From the NCBI GenBank assembly GCA_049297675.1, contig JBAQUS010000004.1:13188-77187 (forward strand): a stretch of 64,000 nt of DNA, written 5' to 3'. Below, one piece after another: positions 842 through 59,696 of this stretch. The position numbers and the translations under genes were made by a program. Below the pieces are notes generated by a model. The model was not told where the DNA came from and made no database searches. It saw only the letters and a list, made by a program, of their open reading frames with translations. This stretch comes from Minisyncoccia bacterium (GTDB taxonomy: Bacteria > Patescibacteriota > Minisyncoccia > Phycocordibacterales > DATDWN01). The stretch's first letter is position 1, and every line of letters starts with the position of its first letter.

Positions 842-1969
842 CTATCTCCATTCTTTGACGATCTGGTGTTTTATAGAACCTATAACACCAACTGAAAGTA
901 ACATCATAATCACCTGGAAGATAAAACCGAAGAACGGAACTAATCCCAAAACCTTAAAGACGACGACACCAATAAATATTGTTTTCAAACTGATTTCCGT
1001 TTCATCTTTTTTAAAGTAACCATAAACCAAACTTCCGACAATTATAGGTGAGATTACCCATCCAAACAAAAGTAGAGAAACGAATGCTATTATCCCCATA
1101 AGCCCAAGTGGAGCTCCTATAATAGTCATAATCAAAAGAACTGAAAGTAGTGGTAATAGAAGTAGAATAAGTAAACCTCTTCCAATCTCAAGCATTGGAC
1201 GCTCCATTGCCTTACTTACAACTTCGCTACTGTATCGTTTCAAATTTAGCCCGATTACAGAAGCGGTAACAAATAGTGCCAGGAATTTCCCAATAACCCA
1301 TAGTGACAGAACTCCCAGGAGTACATCTTTAGGAATCTGCCTTTTAGTTTGAGGCTTAAATTCAATCTCTCCTAAAACTACTGCTCCATCCTCTTTTATT
1401 AGTTCACTATTGGCCTTGTATGACAACTTGCCTTTAATAATTGCTGATTTACCTAGAGTTACAGACTCAGCCATAATACTAATCTCGCCTTCAATCGGTG
1501 AATTAATATAAACTTCTCCTCCAGCAATTTTTACTTTCCCGGAAACCGGCGCGTCAATTCTGATGCTCCCCGCACCCACAGTGACATCCCCTCCTACACC
1601 ACTTCCTCCTATGGTAACCTGGCCACCGGCTATTACAACATCCCCAGAAACTTTTCCTTGTATAACAATATTGCCACCAGCTATGCGTAAGTCATCTAAT
1701 ACATTTGAGACCACAGTCACACTACCTCCGCCAGCCAAAAGATCTGCTCCGACCGTACCACTGACCAAAACATTTCCACCACCAACTATGAGATCTCCCG
1801 TTACTTCTCCCATGCTTGTAACACTTCCCCCACCCAAATAAGCATCTCCAGTAATTTTCTCCCCCGATCCGATAGTGGGCTGTTCTCCACCTCGAAACTC
1901 AGCACTAAAGGCAAGTAAAGGGATGAAAACAAACAAAATCGACAAGAAATAAAGATATGATTTTTTCAT
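842..1969 (-). CDS. Secreted/membrane protein with bactofilin-like beta-helical G-rich repeats and a C-terminal multi-TM domain
   Basis: Signal peptide MKKSYLYFLSILFVFIPLLAFSA. Repeated GD..(V/I)(A/G)GG.V.(V/I).G units. Hydrophobic C-terminal third. Confidence 0.5.
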   Translation of the reverse strand: MKKSYLYFLSILFVFIPLLAFSAEFRGGEQPTIGSGEKITGDAYLGGGSVTSMGEVTGDLIVGGGNVLVSGTVGADLLAGGGSVTVVSNVLDDLRIAGGNIVIQGKVSGDVVIAGGQVTIGGSGVGGDVTVGAGSIRIDAPVSGKVKIAGGEVYINSPIEGEISIMAESVTLGKSAIIKGKLSYKANSELIKEDGAVVLGEIEFKPQTKRQIPKDVLLGVLSLWVIGKFLALFVTASVIGLNLKRYSSEVVSKAMERPMLEIGRGLLILLLLPLLSVLLIMTIIGAPLGLMGIIAFVSLLLFGWVISPIIVGSLVYGYFKKDETEISLKTIFIGVVVFKVLGLVPFFGFIFQVIMMLLSVGVIGSIKHQIVKEWR

Positions 1970-2070
1970 GTTCTAATAGTTAATTTTAATGTTTATATTA
2001 TACACCCACATCTTTTTCATTCAAGACAAACCTAATCCCATGAATACCTGCAACAAATATGTAAAAATTC

Positions 2071-2098
2071 ATTCCAAAATTCTCAAGAATTTTGGAAT
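2071..2098. promoter_or_regulatory. 13+2+13 inverted repeat (attccaaaattct ca agaattttggaat); putative operator
   Basis: Verified by hand. It shares the 16-nt core aaattctcaagaattt with the repeat at 2471-2508. It overlaps the ArsR stop codon and lies about 100 nt upstream of the 842-1969 gene start. Confidence 0.45.
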
Positions 2099-2454
2099 TC
2101 AGTTAAAAATTTGACAAATCTTTCTCCGTAAGGAGTTAGAGAGTGAACAACATTATGACCTTTATAATTTTTATTTATTAGTCCTGCGCCTGAAAGCCTA
2201 CGTAAATGTTCGGATATAGTTTTAAAATTGCCTTTTAGGCTTGACGCAATATTTTCAACACTTGCTCCCTTTTCTTTTGATACTAGAAGTAAAATGGCTA
2301 TTCTCCAATGATTTGCGATTCCTTTTAAGTGCCTTTCCATTTGTTTGGCTGTTTTTGGAACACGATAAAAAGATGCTCCTCCATTAGATGATTTTTTTGA
2401 TTTACTTTTTTTGAAGGCTAATCCCGCTCCCATAGATTGACAGCATCCTAGCAC
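2083..2454 (-). CDS. ArsR/SmtB-family winged-helix transcriptional regulator
   Basis: HWRIAILLLVSKEKGASVENIASSLKGNFKTISEHLRRLSGAGLINK is an ArsR-type HTH. The true start may be an internal Met. Confidence 0.65.
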   Translation of the reverse strand: MLGCCQSMGAGLAFKKSKSKKSSNGGASFYRVPKTAKQMERHLKGIANHWRIAILLLVSKEKGASVENIASSLKGNFKTISEHLRRLSGAGLINKNYKGHNVVHSLTPYGERFVKFLTEFQNS

Positions 2455-2470
2455 AATTCCATATATTGTA

Positions 2471-2508
2471 AACTTATTCTTAAATTCTCAAGAATTTAAG
2501 AATAAGTT
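2471..2508. promoter_or_regulatory. 18+2+18 perfect inverted repeat upstream of the ArsR gene; putative auto-operator
   Basis: aacttattcttaaattct ca agaatttaagaataagtt, arms verified as reverse complements. It lies 17 nt upstream of the ORF start. Confidence 0.5.
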
Positions 2509-2567
2509 ATATTTGGATATTTATAATGAATAATTCTGACTACAAAAATTTCGATACTGACGTTTAC

Positions 2568-2882
2568 TCACTTAAACTCGAAAACAATTTTTTTAAAATT
2601 TATTATTTTGCCTTTTTCGACTTCTATTTTCTCTTTCTTGTACAATGCCATCCTCTCTTTTCTGTGTTTATTGTCCGTCCAGAACTTGCCGTCAGTATAA
2701 ACTATCCTATGCCATGGGATTTTATGATTGCCCTCCTGCCAAGCCTTGTACAAAATGCCTGTGATACTTCTCGAAGCCATGCTTCCCCCACCCCCTGCCT
2801 TAGCAATTTTACCGTAAGTCGTCACTCTGCCTTTTGGAATAGACATTGCCAGTTTTACAACTCTTTCTGAAAAAGTTTGCAT
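2568..2882 (-). CDS. Alkyltransferase-like (ATL) protein; MGMT DNA-binding domain without the catalytic Cys
   Basis: PWHRIV replaces the MGMT PCHRV motif. Upstream is the helix-turn-helix region TTYGKIAKAGG. Confidence 0.65.
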   Translation of the reverse strand: MQTFSERVVKLAMSIPKGRVTTYGKIAKAGGGGSMASRSITGILYKAWQEGNHKIPWHRIVYTDGKFWTDNKHRKERMALYKKEKIEVEKGKIINFKKIVFEFK

Positions 2883-2898
2883 GATATTTAAAAAAATC

Positions 2899-3768
2899 TT
2901 ATTTAACTATCATTTCTAAAAATTTAGAAAGTGAGATGAATGCTGCAGCGGCTTTTTTGTGACCATTTCCTCCCAAAATCTGAGCCAAGGTCAAGGCGTT
3001 TGGCTCATGACCATCTCTTCCTCGAAAACTTATTTTGACAGTGTTACCACTTATTCCAAATATACCTACGGTTTTGTTTTGTTGGCTAGAGAGAATATTT
3101 CCTCCAACCGATCTCAAACCAGAGTCAATGTTGTAAACTGGGACTTCAAAATCACCTATTTTTATAGTAATTGGCAGTTTCTCGAGCTCTTTAGTCAGCC
3201 TCTTGTCTTCGTATATGGATATCATTCTACCCTTATCCTTTTTTTCATCTAAATCAGAATTTATCAAACCAGCTACAGCTTTTGAATCATTTTGAAATAT
3301 TGATAAATAATTCCCCATATCTTTTGTATCATCTCTGTATTTCAACTTAAACAAGTCAGCATCTTCAACCAGTTTTATTAGTTCTGGAACTTCATCATCA
3401 GGGAAAAAATATGACCATGATAATGATGCCCCCGACTTATCATTATCAAAAATGAAAGTGAAATTTTTGTTTTCAATCGCCAACTTTTCGTATTCTTCCT
3501 TTGCACCTATATGATGATCTATTGATGTAACCTTAAAACCTAGACTCAAAATTTCCTTAACGCCCAAAACATTATCAACTGTATAGACATCTGTGCCTTC
3601 ATCAATCAAAGACAAAATATTCTCCAACTCTTCCCTCGTGTGTGAGTGAGATAGTGGAAAAACTTTTGCCTCAGGAAATTTCCTCAAAACCACCGCTCCG
3701 GCAGTTGTCCCGTCATTGCAATCCTTATGATATATGGCTATTACTTTTTTCATGATTTTTTCCTCCAT
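2899..3768 (-). CDS. DHH-family phosphoesterase (DHH/DHHA1)
   Basis: Motifs HKDCNDGTTAG, SIDHHIG and the C-terminal GGNGHKKAAAA. Confidence 0.65.
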   Translation of the reverse strand: MEEKIMKKVIAIYHKDCNDGTTAGAVVLRKFPEAKVFPLSHSHTREELENILSLIDEGTDVYTVDNVLGVKEILSLGFKVTSIDHHIGAKEEYEKLAIENKNFTFIFDNDKSGASLSWSYFFPDDEVPELIKLVEDADLFKLKYRDDTKDMGNYLSIFQNDSKAVAGLINSDLDEKKDKGRMISIYEDKRLTKELEKLPITIKIGDFEVPVYNIDSGLRSVGGNILSSQQNKTVGIFGISGNTVKISFRGRDGHEPNALTLAQILGGNGHKKAAAAFISLSKFLEMIVK

Positions 3769-3789: not shown

Positions 3790-4083
3790 CTACCAAACCT
3801 GGAATATTTCTCTTGAGCCGGTCAGGTACATCTCAGTATAACCCTTCATTTTCTCCATAGCCTTTTTCATTTCTTTTGTCGGATTTTTGTATTTTTCCCA
3901 ACTTTTTTCATAAGCTGTCAGATCTTTATATTTTGAAACCATAATCACTCTGTTATATTGACCAGTCATGTCGGTCATTATGTTGACCAGATTCTTGTCA
4001 CTAGCCATCACCCCTTTAAATAACTTAGCCATTTTCGAAGCATTACCAGGCTTACAAACAAATACATCATGTACGATAATCAT
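3790..4083 (-). CDS. Hypothetical small protein
   Basis: Clean 97-aa ORF in a gene-dense minus-strand run. No motif recognised. Confidence 0.35.
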   Translation of the reverse strand: MIIVHDVFVCKPGNASKMAKLFKGVMASDKNLVNIMTDMTGQYNRVIMVSKYKDLTAYEKSWEKYKNPTKEMKKAMEKMKGYTEMYLTGSREIFQVW

Positions 4084-13435: not shown

Positions 13436-13473
13436 ATACACTTAACTTATGCTATAGCATAAGTTAAGTGTAT
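13436..13473. promoter_or_regulatory. 38-nt perfect palindrome atacacttaacttatgcta|tagcataagttaagtgtat
   Basis: Verified base by base. It lies 26 nt downstream of the PaaX-like stop and is related to the repeat at 14082-14131. Confidence 0.5.
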
Positions 13474-44257: not shown

Positions 44258-44580
44258 TGAGTAACAGAAATCAAAGACTAAGTGAAATTCTAAGAGATTT
44301 AGGTGCCCGTTTTCTGCTTCTTAATGGAAACAAATCCTCGCTTTTAACCGTGACAAAATTGGAATTAACAAGGGATGGAAAAAATGCTACTATTTTCTTT
44401 ACGGTTTTTCCAAATAGTTTTGAAAAAACTGCTCTTGAGTTTGCCAAGAGAAAAAGAAGTGATTTTAGAGAATTCGTTAAGGAAAATTCAAAACTAGGAC
44501 ACCTCCCCCAGTTTGATTTTGAAATTGATCTAGGAGAGAAAAACCGTCAAAAAATTGACGGATTATTAAATGAAAAATGA
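44257..44580 (+). CDS. rbfA: Ribosome-binding factor A
   Basis: RLSEILRDLGARFLLL...LTVTKLELTRDGKNATIFF. The ATGA overlap with infB couples the two genes. The gene ends in TGA. Confidence 0.75.
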   Translation: MSNRNQRLSEILRDLGARFLLLNGNKSSLLTVTKLELTRDGKNATIFFTVFPNSFEKTALEFAKRKRSDFREFVKENSKLGHLPQFDFEIDLGEKNRQKIDGLLNEK

Positions 44581-44650
44581 CCTAGTCGCCAAGTGGTAAG
44601 GCAAAGCTCTGCAAAAGCTTTATACGGCGGTTCGATTCCGCCCTAGGTCT
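44579..44650 (+). tRNA. tRNA-Cys (anticodon GCA)
   Basis: Hand fold: GACCTAG/CTAGGTC acceptor, AAGCT-CTGCAAA-AGCTT anticodon arm, GGCGG-TTCGATT-CCGCC T arm. It starts inside the rbfA stop codon. Confidence 0.85.
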
Positions 44651-44719
44651 CCCTAAAACATTTACACAGTAAGTGTTTGGGTGAACAATTCATCCAGAGA
44701 GTTGTTGTAACCAAATTTT

Positions 44720-44801
44720 GCTCGGGTGGCGGAACTGGTATACGCGTTCGACTTAAAATCGAATCCCGAAAGGGGTATGGGTTCGATTCCCATCCCGAGC
44801 A
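44720..44801 (+). tRNA. tRNA-Leu (anticodon TAA)
   Basis: GCTCGGG/CCCGAGC acceptor, TTCGA-CTTAAAA-TCGAA anticodon arm, long variable arm, ATGGG-TTCGATT-CCCAT T arm. Confidence 0.85.
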
Positions 44802-44850
44802 CAAAATTGAAATAAACTAAAATTAATGTTATAAATTTAAAGTAAAATTT

Positions 44851-44923
44851 GCGCCTATAGCTCAGCTGGTAGAGCAGATCCCTCTTAAGGATAAGGTCCC
44901 AGGTTCGATCCCTGGTGGGCGCA
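44851..44923 (+). tRNA. tRNA-Lys (anticodon CTT)
   Basis: GCGCCTA/TGGGCGC acceptor, GCTC-AGCTGGTA-GAGC D arm, CTCTTAA anticodon loop, CCAGG-TTCGATC-CCTGG T arm. Confidence 0.85.
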
Positions 44924-45119
44924 CAAGCCGAAATAATCTAAACTGCTTTAGATTATTTCGGACTTGTGCGCAACCAGAATATACCTTTAGGTGATTCTGG
45001 TTGAGGTTTCGGGCTTGTGCGTTATTAAAACATGTTTACTAAATAGTTTGAATCGTGGTTTCAAATTTGTGTGTGAAAGTAAGATAGCAATATAATGTTT
45101 TAGTTTCAAGTTAACAATT

Positions 45120-45203
45120 GGGCGAGTGGCGTAACAGTAGCCGCGCCAGTCTTAGGAACTGGTCCCGTAAGGGGTGGAGGTGCGATTCCTCTCTCGCCCA
45201 CCA
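45120..45203 (+). tRNA. tRNA-Leu (anticodon TAG), atypical D and T loops, CCA encoded
   Basis: GGGCGAG/CTCGCCC acceptor, perfect CCAGT-CTTAGGA-ACTGG anticodon arm, long variable arm. The D loop lacks GG, and the T loop is TGCGATT rather than TTCGA.. . Confidence 0.6.
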
Positions 45204-45490: not shown

Positions 45491-46277
45491 CTGTCAAACA
45501 TCCGATGTTTGACAGTAAGTTAGGGGTAGATTATTACCGAAAATGTTAAAACTTTTTATACTTCAAAAGTTTTGGTGTCAGCTTTTACCCCGCTATTTTT
45601 TACAAATTTATAATATTCATATTTATCCTCAAATTGGTCTAATACTACTTCCCTTTTTAATATTTCCTTCCAACGATTTTCTGTAACGTAATCCTGATAG
45701 CTAGACCACTCATATTTTTCTGGATTATTACTCCAATGTGAAAGCTCTTTTGGATTTAAATGAACATACGCAGATAAATGTAGTAGTTGTTCATTACTTT
45801 CAACATGAACTGCTTTATACGGACCTTCAAAAAGATGCCCCGAAATTTTATATTTAGTATTGAAGTATTTTGTATACGAGTTAAGTACACGTTGCATATA
45901 TTTCCCAGTTCCACCTTCTTCATTTTCACGAACTATTAGATGAAAATGGTTAGTCATCATCGCAAAAGAAACTAGGTCAACGTATCTTTTCGAAATTATC
46001 TTTTCGTAATCATCACTGTTAATGTCAAACATCCGATGTTTGACATAATTCGAGATCATTCTTGAAACTTGAGGAAAAATAACATTTGCTTGAAAGTATA
46101 AAATGAGAAATAAAAATCTAATTCTATCTCTATCATCCTTGAAGATGATTTTCTTCCCAACTCCCCGATTATATATATGATAGTGTTCCCCAATTTCAAT
46201 ATTATCTCTTCTCATAACCTCTCATCCTACATGGACAACTATCCATCTGTCAAACATCGGATGTTTGACAGATGGAT
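45491..46277 (-). mobile_element. RAYT/IS200-like unit 1: Y1 gene bracketed by copies of the palindrome tgtcaaacatc-N-gatgtttgaca
   Basis: Palindromes at 45491-45515 (12+c+12), 46022-46046 (inside the CDS) and 46241-46277 (18+g+18). The centre base is complemented in the third copy. Confidence 0.6.
45556..46215 (-). CDS. HUH/Y1 tyrosine transposase-like protein (REP-associated, IS200-like domain)
   Basis: HYHIYNRGVGK, HUH motif TNHFHLIV and the catalytic-Tyr region LSAYVHLNP. Confidence 0.75.
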   Translation of the reverse strand: MRRDNIEIGEHYHIYNRGVGKKIIFKDDRDRIRFLFLILYFQANVIFPQVSRMISNYVKHRMFDINSDDYEKIISKRYVDLVSFAMMTNHFHLIVRENEEGGTGKYMQRVLNSYTKYFNTKYKISGHLFEGPYKAVHVESNEQLLHLSAYVHLNPKELSHWSNNPEKYEWSSYQDYVTENRWKEILKREVVLDQFEDKYEYYKFVKNSGVKADTKTFEV

Positions 46278-46367
46278 AAGATCGATTATTAGAAAGGCTT
46301 GTGATTTTTTTAAAATCGATCTTGTTGCAAATAACGGCTTAATGGTGGGGGTTTTTTGACGACACCC

Positions 46368-46401
46368 TTGACTTGACTTTTGGATTTAATTGTGATAGAA
46401 T
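46368..46401 (+). promoter_or_regulatory. Consensus sigma70-type promoter of the GC-rich cassette
   Basis: TTGACTTGACT (overlapping -35 boxes), then a 17-nt spacer, then TAGAAT (46396-46401) preceded by tgtga. Confidence 0.5.
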
Positions 46402-46499
46402 GGTGAGCAGAACGGGAGCGGCAATTCTTGCCCCTTTCGTCGCTCCTTGACACTCTAGTTTTTAGTTTACAAGCGCTTAAATGCGCAGAAGAGGTTAGC

Positions 46500-48038
46500 A
46501 TGTTTTACACTATCGCAATTTCCGTTCTCGTTGCAGTGACAATCTCGGTCCTGATCGTCGTCGGTTGGCTTATCTTCCGTGTCGTACAGACACGGAGGAG
46601 GACACCAGTCATTCATGATTGGGCGCGGAGGGATGATAGTCGCGAGACGACACCCTCCCCGACTCCTACCACGACATCCGGAATTGATGTCGACCTCACA
46701 CTGAATCCTCCCCGCCATACTCCGAAAGGAAATAGCGGAAGAGAACCCGAACCGTTGCCTCCATGTAAATGGAAAAAAGGCACGTTTCGTATCATCTACT
46801 GGGCGGTAATAATTCCGCTCGGAATGATATCTGTCTTCGTTCTGGAGTGGGGTATCCTATCGGGTCTGCCACTCACGTGGAATACCCTGTTGGAATTCAA
46901 CGCAACTTCAGTTGGGCTGACCCTTGTTGTTCTCTGGGTAGCCTACTTCTTGGACACATTCAAGATCGTCAAGTTCAATGAACTCGGCGGTCGTGTGGTA
47001 CTTGGTAGTTTCGAGTCCTACTCTGACGGGATAACTCTCGCACCGAGATGGATTACCGATCTGGTCAAGGTAACGAGAGCAACTGAAGAACTTGATCAAC
47101 CTCACAGTGACCCGTCAAAAATTTTCTGGGGAGACCTAAGCAAACTTCCAGACGGGAAAATCCCGGACGGTATGGTACTACCAATTCGTGTGCCATTCCT
47201 CCAGAGGTCAAGCGATGAAGACTTCGAAGTTCGCTGGCCACTTGAAACAGGAGAGGTCAAAACCAGAATTACAAAGGGCTATGACCTTCTTAGTGCAACG
47301 GATGCTCCTGTCGAGTATTCGATCGGAATCAGATTCATCGACATCCAACGTGTTATCGTTCGACTCAGGTCACTCAAAGCAGCCTACGACTTGGCAACAG
47401 ACTATGCAGAGACGCTCATAACGGGCACTTTGCAGAAAATGTCCGCTGCCGAAGCCCAAGTACTGAAACAGGAAATTTCAGTACATCTTGAGGAACAGAC
47501 GGACAACCGTGTTTTCCAATCGTACGGCTTCGTGATCGACTTCGTGACTTTGAAGTCAATCGGGACTTCGCACACAATCGCGGAATCGCGAGCGCAGGCG
47601 GCAGCAGCTGTCAACCTTGCGAATAAAACGGTTAGAGACGCAAAAGCTACAGCTAAGGCAACCGAACTTCAAGGTGCTTCTGTGGCTGGAGCTGAATTGG
47701 CACTACTCAACGCGAGGTCAGTAGGACTACGCAACATCGTCGACGCTGCGACTTCACGGTCAGGGGGAGTTGAACTCGCCAAAGCTATGGAAGCGGCACG
47801 CGCTATTCAGTTTGGCGCAGATTCGACAGTTGTTGTCCCAGGTGGAAACACTGGGGACGGTCTCGGACTCTTTGGCGCAGCGGTCGGTACAGCAATTAGT
47901 GCTTCGGCCGCACTTGGGAGAAAACCAGCTGGTGAAAAAGCTCTAACAGAGACCCAACCAGCACAACCAACAACTACTACAACACCCCCTGCACGTGGCG
48001 ACAGACGTGGCCATAAGAAAGGGGGTAAGAGGAGTTAG
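46500..48038 (+). CDS. Multi-TM SPFH/band-7 (prohibitin/HflK-like) domain protein with Ala-rich coiled C-terminus and basic P/T tail
   Basis: Start set at MFYTIAIS (GAGG 5 nt upstream). FKIVKFNELGGRVVLGSF ... YSIGIRFIDIQRVI ... YGFVIDFVTLKSIGTSHTIAESRAQAAAA fits the SPFH pattern. The DNA is GC-rich. Confidence 0.6.
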   Translation: MFYTIAISVLVAVTISVLIVVGWLIFRVVQTRRRTPVIHDWARRDDSRETTPSPTPTTTSGIDVDLTLNPPRHTPKGNSGREPEPLPPCKWKKGTFRIIYWAVIIPLGMISVFVLEWGILSGLPLTWNTLLEFNATSVGLTLVVLWVAYFLDTFKIVKFNELGGRVVLGSFESYSDGITLAPRWITDLVKVTRATEELDQPHSDPSKIFWGDLSKLPDGKIPDGMVLPIRVPFLQRSSDEDFEVRWPLETGEVKTRITKGYDLLSATDAPVEYSIGIRFIDIQRVIVRLRSLKAAYDLATDYAETLITGTLQKMSAAEAQVLKQEISVHLEEQTDNRVFQSYGFVIDFVTLKSIGTSHTIAESRAQAAAAVNLANKTVRDAKATAKATELQGASVAGAELALLNARSVGLRNIVDAATSRSGGVELAKAMEAARAIQFGADSTVVVPGGNTGDGLGLFGAAVGTAISASAALGRKPAGEKALTETQPAQPTTTTTPPARGDRRGHKKGGKRS

Positions 48039-48040
48039 TC

Positions 48041-49396
48041 ATGCCTATCGTCGCAATCGTTATCGTACTCCTCTTTCTCGTCTTCGGACGAAGGAAAGGA
48101 AACGATAGCAAATACATTCGAGAGTCAGAGGTCGTTGATACCAAGCCAAATGGTAAAACAGAGACGGAAAAACACACTCTGTGGTGGCACGTCGGCCACT
48201 ACAAACTCGTGTGGCTACAGCACTGGAGGAGGTCAACAACCCTCCGTGTCTCCGCCGGACTGCTTGCTTTCGGGCTGGGAGTCTGGATCTTCCCTCTAAC
48301 GAGGGAATGGTGGAGTTCGCAGTGGGTTAGCTTCGGCCTTTACCTAATTGCCGCTCTGGCCATTATCTGCCTTGGGTTCATGTTGGGCCCGGCGCAGAAA
48401 GTGCCGTTCGAGTACAGGCTCCGGCCTTTATTGCTCATCATTGGAATTGCGATCGCAGTCTACGGACTCGGTGCGAACACCAAGTTCGGTCAGAGCACCT
48501 GGTCGTGGATCGCCTCTCACTTCGGGAGAACAGATGGAAACATCGGTCTAACTCCAGAGGAGACAGCTGACCTACCGGACGGGTTCGTCGAGAGCGACAA
48601 TCCGAACCACTGGTCAAACCACGTCACCGATGAAAATCGTGATGTGGTCAACATGGTCCGGGCTGCCGTCCAGAGCGAACTTGTCCCAACCCATTGGGAC
48701 CTCGCCATGCAGATCTGCGGTATGGAATCGGCATGGTTTCGTCAGTTCGATGAGGACGGTAATGTTCTCAGAAACGTCAAAAACAATGACGGGTCAATCG
48801 ACTACGGAGTCTGTCAGATCAACTCCATATGGATGAAAAAGTCCAAGGAGTTGGGAGATGGTTTCCGGATCGACGGGCCGGCTGACGAAAACATTCGAAT
48901 GGCCATGTGGATCTGGACGAATCCAGAAACACGTGGGCCACGCGAGTGGACCGGTACGTACAACACAGCTCTTGCTGTTGTCCGCAATGCGCGGACAACG
49001 CCAGAGACTGTGAACGCACGTCGAACTCCAGAGAGGTCACCGGCTGAACAGGAGACTGTTCAGGCTGGGATCGCACTGGTCTCACAAACTGAGCCAATTC
49101 ACCAGCAACGCAACCCACAAAGAGAGGTGTCTGTCACAGCCATGTTTCCAGGATGGGTCACCGACAAGTCCTCCATGACCTGCGACCTCGAAGAGGACGC
49201 AGAAATCGAGGCGGTCGGTGAGCCTGGAATATTTTACTGGAGTGACACAAACTTCAGTACGAACATCCTAAAGCCTGGAGAAACTGCTTCACTTGCTGGA
49301 TTCAAATGCGTTGCAGTCAGATACTTTTCCCCAACGTTTGGGGGAAAACTGACTGAGGGTCAGAGCCCTTACGCAATCGTGAGACGATACAAATAA
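48041..49396 (+). CDS. Membrane-anchored lytic transglycosylase (SLT domain) with a C-terminal domain of unknown function
   Basis: Four to five N-terminal TMs. ICGMESAWFRQFDEDGNV ... DYGVCQINSIW contains the SLT catalytic E-S and the Q-I-N motif. AGAGGAG SD. The ATG lies 2 nt after the upstream stop. Confidence 0.7.
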   Translation: MPIVAIVIVLLFLVFGRRKGNDSKYIRESEVVDTKPNGKTETEKHTLWWHVGHYKLVWLQHWRRSTTLRVSAGLLAFGLGVWIFPLTREWWSSQWVSFGLYLIAALAIICLGFMLGPAQKVPFEYRLRPLLLIIGIAIAVYGLGANTKFGQSTWSWIASHFGRTDGNIGLTPEETADLPDGFVESDNPNHWSNHVTDENRDVVNMVRAAVQSELVPTHWDLAMQICGMESAWFRQFDEDGNVLRNVKNNDGSIDYGVCQINSIWMKKSKELGDGFRIDGPADENIRMAMWIWTNPETRGPREWTGTYNTALAVVRNARTTPETVNARRTPERSPAEQETVQAGIALVSQTEPIHQQRNPQREVSVTAMFPGWVTDKSSMTCDLEEDAEIEAVGEPGIFYWSDTNFSTNILKPGETASLAGFKCVAVRYFSPTFGGKLTEGQSPYAIVRRYK

Positions 49397-49430
49397 ACTA
49401 GAGTTAGAGAGGAGTACACATGTTCGCATG

Positions 49431-49466
49431 AGGCCGTTACCCGATAAGGGAACGGCCTCTTTTTAT
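49431..49466 (+). terminator. Rho-independent terminator of the GC-rich cassette
   Basis: aggccgtt...aacggcct stem followed by ctttttat. Confidence 0.6.
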
Positions 49467-49492
49467 GCATGATGATATATAAAATTTCTCTA

Positions 49493-49525
49493 CAGAAAAC
49501 CGCTCAAGTTGTGAGCGGTTTTCTG
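49493..49525. terminator. Bidirectional 14-bp hairpin cagaaaaccgctca-agttg-tgagcggttttctg
   Basis: Perfect arms, verified. It lies between the convergent cassette and the pilin operon. Confidence 0.6.
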
Positions 49526-53640: not shown

Positions 53641-54168
53641 TTACATCTTCTTAAAGATTAATCCGTAGTGATGTGCTCCGGCGGAAATTTCCCTGTCTAT
53701 ACTAAAGCCCTGCTTTTCAAAAAGCTCTTTGGCTTTTGGTTTTTTAACAACATCGATCGGTTTTGGACCAATTCCACCGAATGAATCTGACCAGTCTATT
53801 ACCAATACCCTTCCCCCGGGTTTTAAAATTCTTTTGGCCTCTTTTATTGCCCCGACTTTATCATCTAGCTGAAAAAGAAGATTGCAAATAAAAACCAGAT
53901 CAACAGAAGAATCCCTAAGTTTTGCTCCATTTGGCTTTTCGACATTACCCCATACTACTTCTATGTTATAAAGGCCTTCTTTTGTTGAGTTATTTTTCAA
54001 TCTGGTCAGTAGCTCTTTATCTACGTCAATAGCGTAAACCCTACCAGTTGAAATGAGCGCCCTTGAAGCAGCCATGGAGTAATGTCCCGAGCCAGAACCA
54101 AAATCTGCAATATCCATCCCGGCCTGTATTCCACACTGCTCTATGTTTTTTATTGGATCGGAGAACAT
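53641..54168 (-). CDS. Class I SAM-dependent methyltransferase
   Basis: Motif I IADFGSGSGHYS and post-I/II LKPGGRVLVIDW. Confidence 0.75.
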   Translation of the reverse strand: MFSDPIKNIEQCGIQAGMDIADFGSGSGHYSMAASRALISTGRVYAIDVDKELLTRLKNNSTKEGLYNIEVVWGNVEKPNGAKLRDSSVDLVFICNLLFQLDDKVGAIKEAKRILKPGGRVLVIDWSDSFGGIGPKPIDVVKKPKAKELFEKQGFSIDREISAGAHHYGLIFKKM

Positions 54169-54341: not shown

Positions 54342-55076
54342 TTACTAGGGTAACCCTAGTAATTACTAGTAACTATCTTTATATTCTAACCAATCAGTTA
54401 TATTATCATTAAAATCAAAGATACTTGAAAAATACTCAGGGAAATTAGTTTTGTCTAAAATCATACCCGCTTCCCTCTTTTGTCCGACATAATCTAAATA
54501 ACTAGAACAATCATAATTCGATAGAAATTTTTTAGCTTTACTAATGTTTTTTATTCCAGATTCTTTCCAGTCATATTCAATTAATTTAACTGGATTAAGA
54601 TGAATGTAAGAAAATAAATATTTCAAATATTCATCAGAGTCAGCATGTTCTGCTTTATATGTACCCTGAAACAACGAACCCACTCTATCATTTAATTTAT
54701 TAAAGTAGGTAGAATAGCCCGTAGTCAATTTTTCCATAAACATAGCTGTACCGCCCTCAACAATTTCTCTAACAAGAATATGAAAATGATTTGGCATTAA
54801 AACCCATGCTCCTATTGCAACGAGTTGCTCGCCCCTGTTAATATCTTTCAATGGTAAGTCTATTGTTGTGCTGTACCTATAAGGAAGAGTATTGTTTGCA
54901 AGATATAAGAGTCTAATAAATCTCTTATAATCATTCTGTGAAATAAAAATATCGCGCTTTTCAACTCCTCGATTATATATATGGTAAAACTCGCCTTCAG
55001 ATATGACTATTTTTCTTTGCATAGAAGCACTATATACTAACAACTCTCATCTTACTAGGGTAACCCTAGTAAGATG
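54342..55076 (-). mobile_element. RAYT/IS200-like unit 2: Y1 gene bracketed by the palindrome ttactagggt-a-accctagtaa
   Basis: 21-nt copy at 54342-54362 and an extended 29-nt copy (catcttactagggt a accctagtaagatg) at 55048-55076. Confidence 0.6.
54366..55022 (-). CDS. HUH/Y1 tyrosine transposase-like protein (second, divergent paralogue)
   Basis: FYHIYNRGVEK, HUH motif PNHFHILV and Tyr region LFSYIHLNP. Start moved to MQRKIVIS by analogy with paralogue 1. Confidence 0.75.
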   Translation of the reverse strand: MQRKIVISEGEFYHIYNRGVEKRDIFISQNDYKRFIRLLYLANNTLPYRYSTTIDLPLKDINRGEQLVAIGAWVLMPNHFHILVREIVEGGTAMFMEKLTTGYSTYFNKLNDRVGSLFQGTYKAEHADSDEYLKYLFSYIHLNPVKLIEYDWKESGIKNISKAKKFLSNYDCSSYLDYVGQKREAGMILDKTNFPEYFSSIFDFNDNITDWLEYKDSY

Positions 55077-55133
55077 AAATTTTGATACCATGAAGCCCTG
55101 AGACTTCATGGTCCCAGGGCTGTTACCTGCTTT

Positions 55134-55343
55134 TTATTCTTCCTTCTCAGGTTTTTGTGGTGTGAAAGTGACAGAACCTGGGAGTTGACCTGAGGCACGT
55201 CTTTGCTGACGCACGGCTTCTTTGTAAAGTAGACATTGACGGTCAGCCTCAGCAGCATCACCACGTTCCCGTGCTTCTGACGCTCTGCACATACGAGTGA
55301 GCCACTCTGGGTTTGGTTCTGGATCAGTACCACGATTCGCCAT
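55134..55343 (-). CDS. Hypothetical 69-aa helical protein; GC-rich orphan
   Basis: gaggaggttaatcATG start. Sequence MANRGTDPEPNPEWLTRMCRASEARERGDAAEADRQ... A hairpin gccctgaga...tcccagggc lies downstream. A hand-counted 60-nt line (55201-55260) is 50% G+C. Confidence 0.5.
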   Translation of the reverse strand: MANRGTDPEPNPEWLTRMCRASEARERGDAAEADRQCLLYKEAVRQQRRASGQLPGSVTFTPQKPEKEE

Positions 55344-55372: not shown

Positions 55373-57841
55373 TTATAAACAAATAAGTGAGGCAATACTA
55401 TCTCCTTCGCGGAGTTTCATGATACGGACACCTTGAGTTTGACGACCAAGAACTGGGATTTCTTTGCTGTCCACTCGGATGACTTGTGATTTTTTAGATA
55501 TTGCCACAATTTCACCTTCAACACTAGCAAAAACTTTAGCGGAAATCAGACTACCTGTTTTTGGAGTAACTTTGGCAGTTTTTATTCCCGAGCCACCGCG
55601 GTTTTGGATTTTGTATTCATCAATATCTGTGCACTTGCCATACCCGTTTGCAGAGATGACCATAACGTTTGCATTGTCTAGATCATTTGGAACTGTCTCA
55701 GCAGAAATAATCTCATCACCCTTTTTTAGTTTAATAGCCCGCACTCCCATAGCGGTTCTTCCCATCTCACGAATATCTGATTCTTTGAAATGAATGGCCT
55801 GTCCCTTGCTTGTTACAACGATAACTGTATCTTTTTTTCTAGTAAATGAAGCTGAGATGAGTGCGTCACCGTCATCTAGCTTTATTGCAATAATACCCGA
55901 AATTCGTACATCGTGAAAACTAGCAGTGGCTACTTTTTTTACTGAGCCTTGTTTAGTAACCATCATTGTTGAAGACTCTTCGCCCTTAACTTTCTTTGGC
56001 ATTGGCAAAATAGAAGTGATTTTCTCACCTTCTGAAAGTGGTAAAAAGTTCATGATTGATTTCCCACGAGTAGCCCTGCGTCCCTCTGGAATGTCATACA
56101 TTTTTGTCTGATAAACTTTTCCTCTGTTAGTAAAGAAAAGCAAATCGGAGTGAGTAGAAGTTATGAGTAGATTTGTAACAAAGTCTTCTTCTTTTGTGTC
56201 CAGGTCAATCACCCCGACTCCCCCACGTTTTTGTTTTCTAAACTCATCTGGATTGGTTCGCTTTATGTATCCACCAGCGGTCAATACTAGCGCGTTTTCC
56301 TCATCAGGAACGAGATCTTCGACGGAAAGTACTTGTGCTCCACCCTTTATTATTTTTGTGCGCCTCTCGTCACCATATTTTTCCTTAATATCTTCCGACT
56401 CTTTTTTTATTATTAAAATAACTTTCTTTGGAGAGTTTAATATGGACTTTAGTTCCTCAATCATAATCTGCACTGCCTTGAGTTCATCCTCTATCTTCTT
56501 TCTCTCAAGTCCGGCCAAACGTGAAAGCTTCATTTCCAAAATAGCATTGGCTTGAATTGACGAGAATTTAAACTCTTTCATCAATCTCATGTGAGCCTCG
56601 GGAGTATCTTTGGAAGATTTGATGAGTTTAATAATGGCATCAATATGATCGAGTGCTTTTTTCAATCCCAAAAGAATATGCTCTCTTTCCAGTGCTTTTT
56701 TGAGATCAAACTCTGTTCGTCTTTTTATTACTGTTACTCTGTGAGAAATAAATTCCTCCAAAATATCTTTTAGGGAGACTGTCTCTGGTATCCCTTTTAC
56801 GAGACCAACCATATTGTAATGAAAAGTGTCTTCGAGTTGAGTATGTTTATATAAATAATTCAGAACTGTTTGAGGATGAGCTGTACCTTTTAACTCAATA
56901 ACTATTCTTATATCTTTTGCAGACTCATCACGAATGTCTTTTATTCCCTCGACTTTTTTCTCCTTGTGAAGATCAACTATTTTTAATATTAGGTCAGCCT
57001 TGTTTACTCTAAATGGTAGCGAAGTAATAACGATTTGATACTGTCCAGATTTTGTCTCAACAACTTCTGCCATACCACGCACAACTACACCACCTTTTCC
57101 TGAAGAATAAGCATGATGCATGTCCTTAGCTCCAAAAGCTATTGCTCCTATCGGAAAATCTGGACCTTTGACGAACTGCAGAAGATCCTCTGTTGTAGCA
57201 TCTTTATTATCTGCCAAATGGATAACCGCATCCATCACTTCGTTTAGGTTATGAGGCGGAATATTTGTTGCCATTCCAACGGCAATACCTAGTGTGCCGT
57301 TTAGAAGCAAGTTAGGTACAGCGGTTGGCAAAACTTTCGGCTCCTTTTTTGTGCCGTCGTAATTTGGCACAAAATCAACAGTTTCTTTTTCAATATCGTG
57401 CAGAAGTTCGGATGCCAATTTAGTCATTTTTGCCTCCGTATAACGCATGGCTGCCGCATTGTCTCCATCAATCGAACCAAAATTTCCCTGACCTAATATG
57501 AGAGGGTAACGCATAGTAAAATCCTGCGCCATCTTAACCATTGAATCATAAACTGCTACATCACCATGCGGGTGATAATTTCCCAAAACTTCTCCGACTA
57601 CCGCAGCAGATTTTCTGGATTTGGCACCAGATGTCAATCCGAGTTCTGACATAGCAAAAAGAATTCTCCTATGCACAGGTTTTAGTCCATCACGAACATC
57701 TGGTAATGCACGATCGGTAATAACAGACATTGCATAATCTATAAAAGATGTCTTCATCTCAGAAGTTATTTCCTGCGAGATAACATTTTTTACAGCTAAA
57801 GCCGAATTGGTCTCTTCTGGATTATTTTTTTTACCTGACAT
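55373..57841 (-). CDS. gyrA: DNA gyrase subunit A
   Basis: [10 protein letters not shown] active-site Tyr region, YHPHGD and C-terminal beta-pinwheel repeats. Confidence 0.95.
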
Positions 57842-58958: not shown

Positions 58959-59023
58959 AACGTTAGTCTAACAGAAAAATTTATTTTTTCAAACTGAGAA
59001 ATTTCAAAATTAAATTTCTTAAC

Positions 59024-59054
59024 AGGTACTTGGCGGTTTAACCGCCAAGTACCT
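59024..59054. repeat. Orphan 31-nt perfect palindrome aggtacttggcggtt-t-aaccgccaagtacct
   Basis: All 15 pairs verified. About 70 nt further on is cccctcgcttactcgctta (59124-59142). Confidence 0.55.
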
Positions 59055-59220
59055 AAGAATTTTGAAAGTTATTTATTTGACTACTCAGTTGTAGAAATCA
59101 GTCGTAGAAAATAAAGCGAGGACTCCCCTCGCTTACTCGCTTAAAATACTTAGAGAAACAGAAAACCCGCCGACCGATGCCGACGGGTTTCATAATCGTC
59201 GCTTGAGGTGATTTCCATTG

Positions 59221-59424
59221 TCAGTACGAATCGCTCATTGTTTTCCACCCGCAATATGTACAAGTTGAGTAGACAAACGTGTACATCTTGTCTTCAGTAT
59301 TACGTGCCTCCTGGCTAATCTTTCTAGAAAAGCACTCAGGGCACGACTTGATTTTGAGGGACGGGGGAACTCCAATCCCAAGACCCTTCGACAAATCTTC
59401 GATCAAATCTCTGACGATGCTCAT
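59221..59424 (-). CDS. Small zinc-ribbon protein (67 aa); GC-richer orphan
   Basis: gcggaggtttcaaccATG start at MSIVRDL. CPEC...(22 aa)...CTYC motif. Confidence 0.5.
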   Translation of the reverse strand: MSIVRDLIEDLSKGLGIGVPPSLKIKSCPECFSRKISQEARNTEDKMYTFVYSTCTYCGWKTMSDSY

Positions 59425-59696
59425 GGTTGAAACCTCCGCAACCATTATACACCCAAACACAACGCTTGTCAAGATGGTAAAAATGTGTTACTTCTGTATA
59501 CTGTTTGGGTATTTTACAAGCAGAGTCTAAAAGGAGTTAAACCATCACATTTGTGTAATCCCCTAGGTGTCACCTAGGGGAAAATGTGATAGCCTCCTCT
59601 CTAAAATACTCAAGAATACTAATGTCAAGAAAAATAAAGGAGGAAGTTAAGAGCGAAGCGCTTGAAAAAGAAGCCAAGCAAAAGGAGGAGGGGGTA

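Follow-up and report, generated by a model that had tools for sequence, protein, structure and literature searches.

Introduction

The transposition of single-stranded DNA (ssDNA) by the IS200/IS605 insertion sequences (IS) depends on Y1 HUH enzymes and their hairpins, and so does the biology of repetitive extragenic palindromic (REP) sequences and REPINs. REPtrons as well as IS200/IS605 are known to consist of a coding sequence with palindromes at its borders; IS200 and IS1541 have perfect palindromic ends, and REP groups that are perfect palindromes and co-evolve with their enzyme have also been described (PMC8266576). YxxxNP is the class-2 Y motif, while YxxxQ marks the IS200 subclass (PMC6006769). 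Subclass 2.1 (Bertels group 1) is recognised by the motifs NH[YF]H, FQ and Y[IV]HLNP together with SS in the proximal tail, and no REP-like structures have been reported next to its genes; REPs lying in frame within tnpAREP have been described for subclass 2.4 of Cyanobacteria and Bacteroidetes (Quentin et al., 2018, PMC6006769). The 64-kb stretch of a Minisyncoccia bacterium contig analysed here (37% G+C, hereafter the window) contains two Y1 paralogues, each bracketed by a palindrome of its own. The second of them, unit 2, is the subject of this work, and the other is referred to as unit 1. We propose that unit 2 is probably a self-contained gene for a RAYT-class Y1 ssDNA endonuclease/transposase bounded by two cognate stem-loops, at which the enzyme would cut and rejoin DNA and by which the unit would, rarely, relocate.

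Results

The unit 2 gene lies on the minus strand at 54,366–55,022 and encodes 218 amino acids, with its ATG at 55,022 and its TAG stop codon at 54,366–54,368. Only 3 nt from the stop codon, a perfect 10+1+10 palindrome (TTACTAGGGTaACCCTAGTAA) occupies 54,342–54,362, and the upstream hairpin at 55,047–55,077 is a perfect 15+1+15 palindrome (TCATCTTACTAGGGTaACCCTAGTAAGATGA). Both had been recognised in the initial annotation, made from the sequence alone, in which the upstream copy ran from CATCT to AGATG (55,048–55,076) and was thus one pair shorter. The 21-nt palindrome TTACTAGGGT-a-ACCCTAGTAA common to both sides is present in exactly two copies in the 64-kb window (54,342–54,362 and 55,052–55,072), and shuffled sequence contained no match to it at up to 3 mismatches. 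Folded as ssDNA, the upstream hairpin reaches −13.2 kcal/mol (z = −7.1) and the downstream one −7.1 kcal/mol (z = −2.2). Next to the latter, at 54,363–54,369 (minus strand), a direct reading of the sequence gives TTACTAG in sense, a partial duplicate of the hairpin 5′ arm from which the last Tyr codon and the TAG stop of the gene are derived; an in-frame TAA comes next. Alignment with the orthologous locus L161, whose TAC-TAG lies within the hairpin arm, places a 10-nt insertion in this region. The gene is flanked upstream by gyrA (55,373–57,841) and downstream by a gene for an S-adenosylmethionine (SAM)-dependent methyltransferase (53,641–54,168), both on the minus strand, and these two neighbours define a conserved slot.

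The start codon matters for all distances discussed below. The Met8 start proposed initially is borne out by an identical 218-aa protein in the database, an NCBI-sourced entry named 'MAG: transposase [Minisyncoccia bacterium]' that uses the same start (MAG, metagenome-assembled genome), by homologues that begin with MQRK or MERK, and by the hexamer TATAGT, which ends exactly 6 nt before this ATG, as such hexamers do at 44 of 74 homologous loci.

Unit 1 has the same layout with one addition. Its Y1 gene (45,556–46,215, minus strand; 219 aa) encodes a protein 38% identical to that of unit 2. The hairpin on its 3′ side (45,491–45,515; 12+1+12, CTGTCAAACATCcGATGTTTGACAG) and the upstream hairpin (46,240–46,278; 19+1+19, with CATCT...AGATG inside and TTGACA in the gene-proximal arm) are joined by a third copy within the open reading frame (ORF) at 46,022–46,046, which is in frame, encodes YVKHRMFDI and was absent from the initial annotation. 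That annotation was right in regarding the cores of the two units as unrelated, unit 1 having the core TGTCAAACATC-s-GATGTTTGACA, in seeing CATCT...AGATG within both upstream palindromes, and in assigning each paralogue its own hairpin; its unit lengths likewise agree with ours, about 736 bp for unit 2 and 788 bp for unit 1, i.e. the size of IS200. We also observed that the upstream hairpin of unit 1 directly adjoins an island of about 52% G+C (46,400–49,500) with two large ORFs (536 and 451 aa) lacking a significant Pfam match, which looks like horizontally acquired DNA, and that a cluster of four tRNA genes (44,579–45,203) lies on the other side of the unit.

Motifs and fold support, the latter on the basis of a model, the assignment of the unit 2 protein to the Y1 HUH enzymes of the RAYT type, and thereby the RAYT-like label given earlier. 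Pfam PF01797 (Y1_Tnp) scored 23.9 bits for unit 2, a marginal match given the cutoff of 23, and 30.1 bits for unit 1, and NCBIfam NF047646 (REP_Tyr_transpos) remained below its cutoff of 80 with 40.4 and 27.8 bits, respectively. The protein contains N78-H79-F80-H81 (HUH), F118-Q119, Y139-I-H-L-N143-P144 with Tyr139 as the catalytic tyrosine, and S173-S174. H79-F80-H81 and Y139 are invariant in 25 aligned sequences, as are, in the family alignment, NHFH, FQG, Y-x-H-L-N-P and the SSY of the C-terminal tail. An AlphaFold model of the protein (mean confidence score, pLDDT, 89.9) has as its best match in the PDB chain 4er8_A (E = 2.7e-6), from the complex of Escherichia coli TnpAREP with a REP hairpin, and next to it come the TnpA proteins of IS608, ISDra2 and IS200; 2a6o, 2xm3 and 2f4f are among the fold matches. 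A sequence-profile search of the PDB returned no relative, and relatives were found by fold comparison only. No Pfam match to a distal C-terminal helix-turn-helix (HTH) or Bac_DnaA_C domain was obtained at E values up to 0.1.

The family to which this protein belongs is large. Clustered at 50% identity, it comprises 1,216 clusters at E ≤ 1e-30, 14,050 at E ≤ 1e-10 and 29,986 at E ≤ 1e-3, and nearly all named matches and genome loci are from Patescibacteria. Among 5.8 billion proteins, the nearest one other than the identical entry is 70% identical to unit 2. Nearly every 90%-identity cluster occurs on one or a few contigs, with the genes located within long contigs. Searches of viral contigs gave one relative (27% identity) and those of plasmids 21 records (at most 31% identity), so that no phage or plasmid vector for the family is evident from them. 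Within the window, tblastn with 76 family proteins found nothing below E = 0.03 outside units 1 and 2, and at the gathering thresholds no Rfam family overlaps the units, the matches in the window being eight tRNAs only.

We analysed 80 homologous genome loci, 74 of them with a clean gene model, and found that the hairpin-gene-hairpin layout is a trait of the family. A perfect stem of at least 8 bp is present within 100 nt upstream at 56 of 73 Y1 loci, compared with 10 of 121 control ORFs, and at the 3′ end at 44 of 73 loci, compared with 14 of 86. A word of 14 nt or longer is common to both flanks at 48 of 70 loci and in only 1 of 81 controls. The hairpin sequence itself varies from locus to locus, although an inner stem of the form ..AAGG/CCTT.. 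or ..TAGG/CCTA.. is common to many, and the 3′ copy often lies directly against the stop codon or overlaps it. Within the ORF, the hairpin of the locus is found again at 17 of 58 loci (7 of 584 in trials with the hairpins of other loci). This internal copy is in frame, lies at +152 to +209 nt and falls in one fixed surface loop before the HUH motif; we detected it in unit 1 and at L003, L004, L007, L008, L011, L012, L013, L016, L060, L061, L064, L070, L071, L073, L077, L080, L176, L178 and L180. At L012, TCCAAGGTTCGACCTTGGA stands at all three places, as checked by eye. That the internal copy is the same as the flanking ones within a locus and different between loci implies concerted evolution or else recurrent insertion into a single permissive site. 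In unit 2, the homologous site (54,849–54,863, minus strand; sense ATAGACTTACCATTG, peptide IDLPL) matches the unit's own hairpin at 10 of 15 bases and does not fold (z = +0.78), and is at most a decayed relic of a hairpin; the relatives L003, L004 and L008 have a perfect hairpin encoding QGLPL there.

Judged from the asymmetry of the loop, the copies of one locus are direct or inverted relative to each other without any rule, and inverted, REPIN-like doublets were found at L015, L029, L039, L046, L074, L081 and L174. The ten nucleotides on either side of 59 hairpins revealed no conserved nucleotide, no guide or cleavage motif and no GT[AG]G foot; the flanks of the unit 2 hairpin read ...aaaatt and gagttg.... 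Two further origins of the layout were considered and rejected: duplication of a palindromic target site, as the flanking copies are inverted in many loci (by loop sequence) and a third copy sits in the ORF, and insertion into a pre-existing hairpin, as complete hairpins rather than half-arms stand on both sides. As a separate observation, L030, L041, L048 and L052 carry an extra hairpin copy some 640–700 nt from the Y1 gene, beyond an unrelated neighbour of 150–200 aa, which is thus also bracketed by the hairpin of the locus.

Which part of the palindrome is retained was assessed from orthologues. The initial annotation had read the outer arms as a conserved cleavage context around a variable recognition stem, but the orthologues show the reverse. 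The nearest relative of unit 2 is the protein P0002 (70% identical), encoded in the same slot and orientation (gyrA, Y1 gene, methyltransferase) on nine contigs, L161–L169. At L161, 69% of the coding nucleotides and 46% of the third positions are identical to unit 2, with 14 nt as the longest identical coding run, and still the 21-nt hairpin is kept without change in three copies, one 4 nt after the gyrA stop codon, one 7 nt ahead of the ATG and one spanning the Tyr and stop codons. Its outer arms differ, CATTT and TTAAG replacing the CATCT and AGATG of the window. More distant relatives behave similarly, L174 (68%) and L171 (65%) having kept the core CTAGGGTwACCCTAG, while L170 (66%) has none; L171 is found in a different genomic context, and the contig of L174 is too short to show its neighbours. 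Three relatives of unit 1 at 69–72% identity (L176, L178 and L180) occupy three other contexts with the full three-hairpin layout and the core TGTCAAACA...TGTTTGACA, including the in-ORF hairpin at +168 to +170, and none of them has CATCT/AGATG. Since L161 and these relatives of unit 1 keep the core and lack this pair, it is the inner core that is conserved, the outer arms being specific to the lineage. Between clades, paired changes preserve the stem (CTAGGGT/ACCCTAG, CAAGGGT/ACCCTTG and CAAGGGC/GCCCTTG).

Among 59 loci, CATCT occurs in the 5′ arm of the two window units only, and 4.6% of distant locus pairs share an outer 5-mer (empirical value). Both window units further have AGTTGT 2–3 nt after AGATG, so that it is possible, though unproven, that the two upstream regions in this genome are related. 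As for the co-evolution of enzyme and hairpin suggested initially, the part that stands is that the core travels with the gene within a protein clade. Beyond close relatives, covariation of protein and hairpin across the family is weak (Mantel r of about 0.1, reached by 79 of 2,000 permutations), because the hairpins diverge too fast and the loop-anchored comparison is crude.

The second pillar of the earlier interpretation, a spacing of exactly 25 nt in both units, has to be revised. From the ATG to CATCT/AGATG we counted 25 nt for unit 2 but 28 nt for unit 1; measured to the full perfect palindrome, the two units agree at 24 nt (55,023–55,046 and 46,216–46,239), and CATCT is in register in the two units (61 nt) only when measured from the YHIYNRG codons. 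Across the family, the foot of the hairpin lies 6–93 nt from the ATG with 24 nt as both median and mode, and two random loci share their spacing with P = 0.037; for these two reasons the equal spacing is weak evidence. We infer from the upstream sequences that the family genes are leaderless. A TATAAT-like hexamer (at least 5 of 6 matches) ends exactly 6 nt before the ATG at 44 of 74 loci, compared with 23 of 197 control ORFs from the same loci (about 12%), and Shine-Dalgarno (SD)-like motifs precede only 3 of the 74 genes. In unit 2, the putative −10 hexamer is the TATAGT at 55,029–55,034 (minus strand), and the gene-proximal arm of the upstream hairpin covers the −35 position of the predicted promoter. 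Such a layout places this arm over −35 and would produce a similar geometry without any cleavage register. With a range of 6–93 nt and a value of 7 nt in the orthologue L161, as against 24 nt in the window, the spacing is no family constant, and a leaderless promoter between hairpin and ATG explains it better. Neither consistent spacing nor conserved outer arms, the observations by which the initial annotation wished to be judged, were found across the family.

The slot between gyrA and the methyltransferase gene was next compared among relatives. The order gyrA, methyltransferase, solute-binding protein is widely conserved. In 65 syntenic metagenome loci, the gap is shorter than 200 nt in 28, holds other content in 32 and holds a Y1 gene in 5, always on the opposite strand; the genome loci L007, L012 and L013 resemble these five in having an opposite-strand Y1 gene of other hairpin types in the slot. 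At least four hairpin types occupy it across the window and related loci. L081, the closest relative by gyrA (83% identical; methyltransferase 70%), has a YNRGNNK-type Y1 gene plus an extra gene there, and the best tblastn match of this Y1 gene to the Y1 panel of 74 loci is about 37% identical. As L081 carries a different Y1 type, the occupant of the slot is not simply inherited. The empty and differently occupied slots point to rare relocation. As for the empty sites that the initial annotation recommended to look for, the relatives with an empty slot are too divergent for the junctions to be aligned. Among side observations, L081 has a 24+4+24 perfect palindrome before its Y1 gene (3,895–3,946), each arm of which is a TGTCAAG...CTTGACA hairpin, a REPIN-like doublet, and a related single hairpin at the 3′ end of the gene (3,214–3,235).

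The hairpins remain with their genes when the context changes: the clades of unit 2 and unit 1 are each found with hairpins in at least three unrelated contexts, and the core of unit 2 itself in at least two. They were not seen to spread on their own. Allowing up to 3 mismatches, the window contains no further copy of either unit's hairpin, and the flanks of 59 loci (224 kb) contain only eight copies at distances above 200 nt from the gene, most of which bracket an adjacent gene. The genes next to unit 1's relatives, sought in the window as markers of an empty site for unit 1, are all absent from it. An exact 21-mer scan of JGI metagenome contigs gave 0 matches, which has little bearing on dispersal as the organism is apparently outside this collection. 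The only near-identical copies in the family are those of L073, where a tandem array at 1,152–3,120 (period 925 nt) contains two 100% identical Y1 units, each with all three hairpins, and part of a third spacer; this is either a recent duplication or an assembly artefact. Taken together, the units appear as low-copy residents that have been moved or copied rarely and with some site preference, and neither as an active multicopy IS nor as a source of REPs.

Several other features of the window deserve mention. Between gyrA and the upstream hairpin of unit 2, a 69-aa ORF (55,134–55,343, minus strand; 51% G+C) without Pfam match has a strong GAGGAGG SD motif, rare in these genomes, and terminator-like hairpins of its own at 55,090–55,125. 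It is absent from L161, where the gyrA stop codon is 4 nt from the hairpin, and therefore represents an insertion next to unit 2. An unusually long gene-poor stretch at 58,959–59,585 is bounded by palindromes at 59,024–59,054 and 59,559–59,581, the latter being TCCCCTAGGTGtCACCTAGGGGA with a CCTAGG core. It includes a small minus-strand ORF of about 45% G+C with a GGAGG SD motif and a CxxC...CxxC pattern (zinc-ribbon-like); no Rfam family and no Y1 relic was found in it. Two palindromes with the shared core AATTCTCAAGAATT (2,071–2,098 and 2,471–2,508) bracket a 123-aa ORF (2,083–2,454, minus strand), which resembles a small DNA-binding regulator; the palindromes probably serve as operators or terminators and have no relation to the Y1 units. 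Finally, a 38-nt perfect palindrome without a loop, ATACACTTAACTTATGCTATAGCATAAGTTAAGTGTAT, lies in the intergenic region near tRNA-Gln at 13,436–13,473.

Discussion

Unit 2 shares features with several described groups. With TnpAREP/RAYT enzymes and their REPs (4ER8) it has in common the HUH and YxxxNP motifs, a low-copy gene bracketed by cognate palindromes, and palindromes specific to each paralogue. It differs from them in that no dispersed high-copy REPs and no GT[AG]G foot were seen, in its NCBIfam score below cutoff, in the C-terminal domain of the 218-aa protein, in a 3′ hairpin that abuts or overlaps the stop codon in this family, and in the predicted leaderless promoter with the hairpin on −35. 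The tnpA-only members of IS200/IS605 (IS200, IS1541) are likewise about 0.7 kb long with one Y1 gene between terminal palindromes, have hairpins at both ends and are patchily present with empty sites in related genomes; unit 2 departs from them by YxxxNP instead of YxxxQ, by a longer protein, by the lack of multiple near-identical copies, by ends and a target site that are undefined, and by not having been found on plasmids or phages. Subclass 2.1 (Bertels group 1 RAYTs, TIRYTs; Quentin et al., 2018) shares with our family the full motif set, low copy number and divergent paralogues per genome. Compared by tabulated motifs, our family differs from this subclass in that hairpins are the rule (56 of 73 loci) and in that no C-terminal HTH or Bac_DnaA_C domain was matched. 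The 2018 sample of subclass 2.1 apparently did not include Patescibacteria, as neither 'Patescibacteria' nor 'Parcubacteria' appears in the text (PMC6006769). Unit 1 and 17 of 58 homologous loci resemble subclass 2.4 in having a cognate palindrome in the enzyme's own ORF with the frame intact, but their copy precedes the HUH motif at one fixed loop, and the motifs of subclass 2.4 are WQ and YIxNNP. To the best of our knowledge, no description exists of the combination of a Patescibacteria-wide family, subclass 2.1 motifs, a predicted leaderless promoter and perfect hairpins that are private to their locus, are not dispersed, and occupy the promoter, the stop codon and in many cases a single fixed ORF loop. 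Unit 2 is an ordinary member of this large and apparently undescribed Patescibacteria family variant.

We surmise that the CTAGGGT/ACCCTAG stem-loops would fold when the DNA is single-stranded, e.g. in the lagging-strand template, and that the encoded enzyme would recognise them and cut and rejoin the adjacent DNA. By analogy with the established chemistry of IS608 TnpA and TnpAREP (PMC6006769, PMC8266576), this action might keep the hairpin copies of one locus identical over evolutionary time, while the whole hairpin-gene-hairpin unit would occasionally be moved or copied to a new intergenic site. Solo hairpins would not spread through the genome, in contrast to classical REP systems. The upstream hairpin, situated on the −35 position of the predicted leaderless promoter, would probably insulate or autoregulate the gene.

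A number of observations speak against this proposal. Copy number is low, the paralogues are 38% identical and nothing more than 70% identical was found outside this genome, and with such deep divergence recent transposition is not demonstrated. The relatives with an empty slot are too divergent for a junction to be aligned that would define the element ends and the target tetranucleotide, and neither a guide motif nor a cleavage site was recognisable beside the hairpins. The changes of context could in part result from old paralogy and genome rearrangement. Our dispersal counts refer to the window and to 224 kb of relatives' flanks, and copies may exist elsewhere in the genome. Moreover, a dimeric protein could equally well bind such a perfect palindrome in double-stranded DNA, and stem covariation does not separate the two possibilities.

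Three other explanations were weighed against the proposed self-contained unit. It is unlikely that unit 2 is a classical REPtron, that is, a domesticated single-copy RAYT whose flanking hairpins are local members of a genome-wide REP/REPIN population. TnpAREP as the best structural match and the class-2 motif YxxxNP would agree with it, and so would the cognate palindromes flanking the gene, the REPIN-like inverted doublets at seven loci and the few hairpin copies in neighbouring intergenic regions of L030, L041, L048 and L052; perfect-palindrome REPs are known (PMC8266576), and the orthologue in the same slot suggests vertical inheritance. However, the window has no extra hairpin copies, the flanks of 59 loci have only eight in 224 kb, and the JGI scan, for what it can tell about an organism apparently not sampled there, had no match. 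The GT[AG]G foot is missing, the score with REP_Tyr_transpos is half of the cutoff, and the motif set fits TnpAY1 subclass 2.1, which was reported without REPs. Equally improbable in our view is an active IS200-type insertion sequence, in which the hairpins would be the subterminal left and right ends used for peel-and-paste transposition as in IS200 or IS608. Here the Y motif is YIHLNP and not YxxxQ, the protein has 218 aa with a conserved C-terminal domain compared with about 150 aa for IS200 TnpA, and near-identical copies are lacking (38% between the paralogues, 70% to the nearest relative), with the genes sitting in long contigs and few contigs per cluster. The family is also essentially absent from viral contigs and plasmids, and the orthologue remains in the same slot down to 70% identity. 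These points outweigh, for us, a unit of about 736 bp in which palindromes border a lone tnpA-like gene, a slot that many relatives leave empty and others fill in either orientation, the recurrence of the same gene-plus-hairpin unit in several contexts, and the identical tandem copies of L073.

The palindromes could also be purely regulatory, acting as bidirectional terminators or insulators or as operators of a dimeric repressor without being processed by the enzyme, but we regard this as very improbable. While the upstream hairpin has a terminator-like score on both strands and overlaps the −35 of the predicted promoter, a hairpin copy stands 4 nt after the gyrA stop codon in L161, and the 3′ copy adjoins the stop codon, with a run of T a few nucleotides further on in the window as well as in L161, regulation gives no reason why the terminators of two genes should be identical within a locus and yet different between loci. 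A terminator would be harmful inside an ORF, where 17 of 58 loci have an in-frame hairpin. The hairpin also stays with the gene when the context changes, the 21-nt sequence is conserved beyond its structure at 70% protein identity, and known members of the enzyme's class bind such hairpins.

A farther-reaching view goes beyond the self-contained RAYT-class unit that we favour. According to it, the patescibacterial YH(I/V)YNRG proteins and their private hairpins would form a distinct, undescribed class of single-gene ssDNA elements, neither IS200 nor REP/RAYT; we consider this view, of which the following two suggestions are part, rather doubtful. The enzyme may actively keep up to three hairpin copies identical, at the promoter, in frame in the ORF and at the stop codon, while the unit relocates to preferred slots such as that between gyrA and the methyltransferase gene. 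The frame of CATCT-[core]-AGATG plus AGTTGT, which is absent from the orthologues, may reflect a common palindromic target that received each of the hairpins by insertion, or an exchange between the two units.

The findings bear on the wider enzyme family in several ways. Subclass 2.1 is the largest RAYT-like subclass, without a reported associated DNA structure and without known function; if the present family belongs with it, these loci supply a candidate DNA substrate for it. This substrate is defined and can be synthesised, as a 21-nt hairpin more strongly conserved than the coding sequence, and natural pairs for specificity are at hand in units 1 and 2 of one genome and in the orthologues of both, which come from the same two metagenome samples, ERZ28563625 and ERZ4903072. 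The copy inside the ORF raises the question of how the copies of one locus stay identical. The family is nearly confined to the Patescibacteria, whose genomes are otherwise minimal, and its description explains the 'transposase' genes that sit singly in long contigs of Patescibacteria metagenome-assembled genomes.

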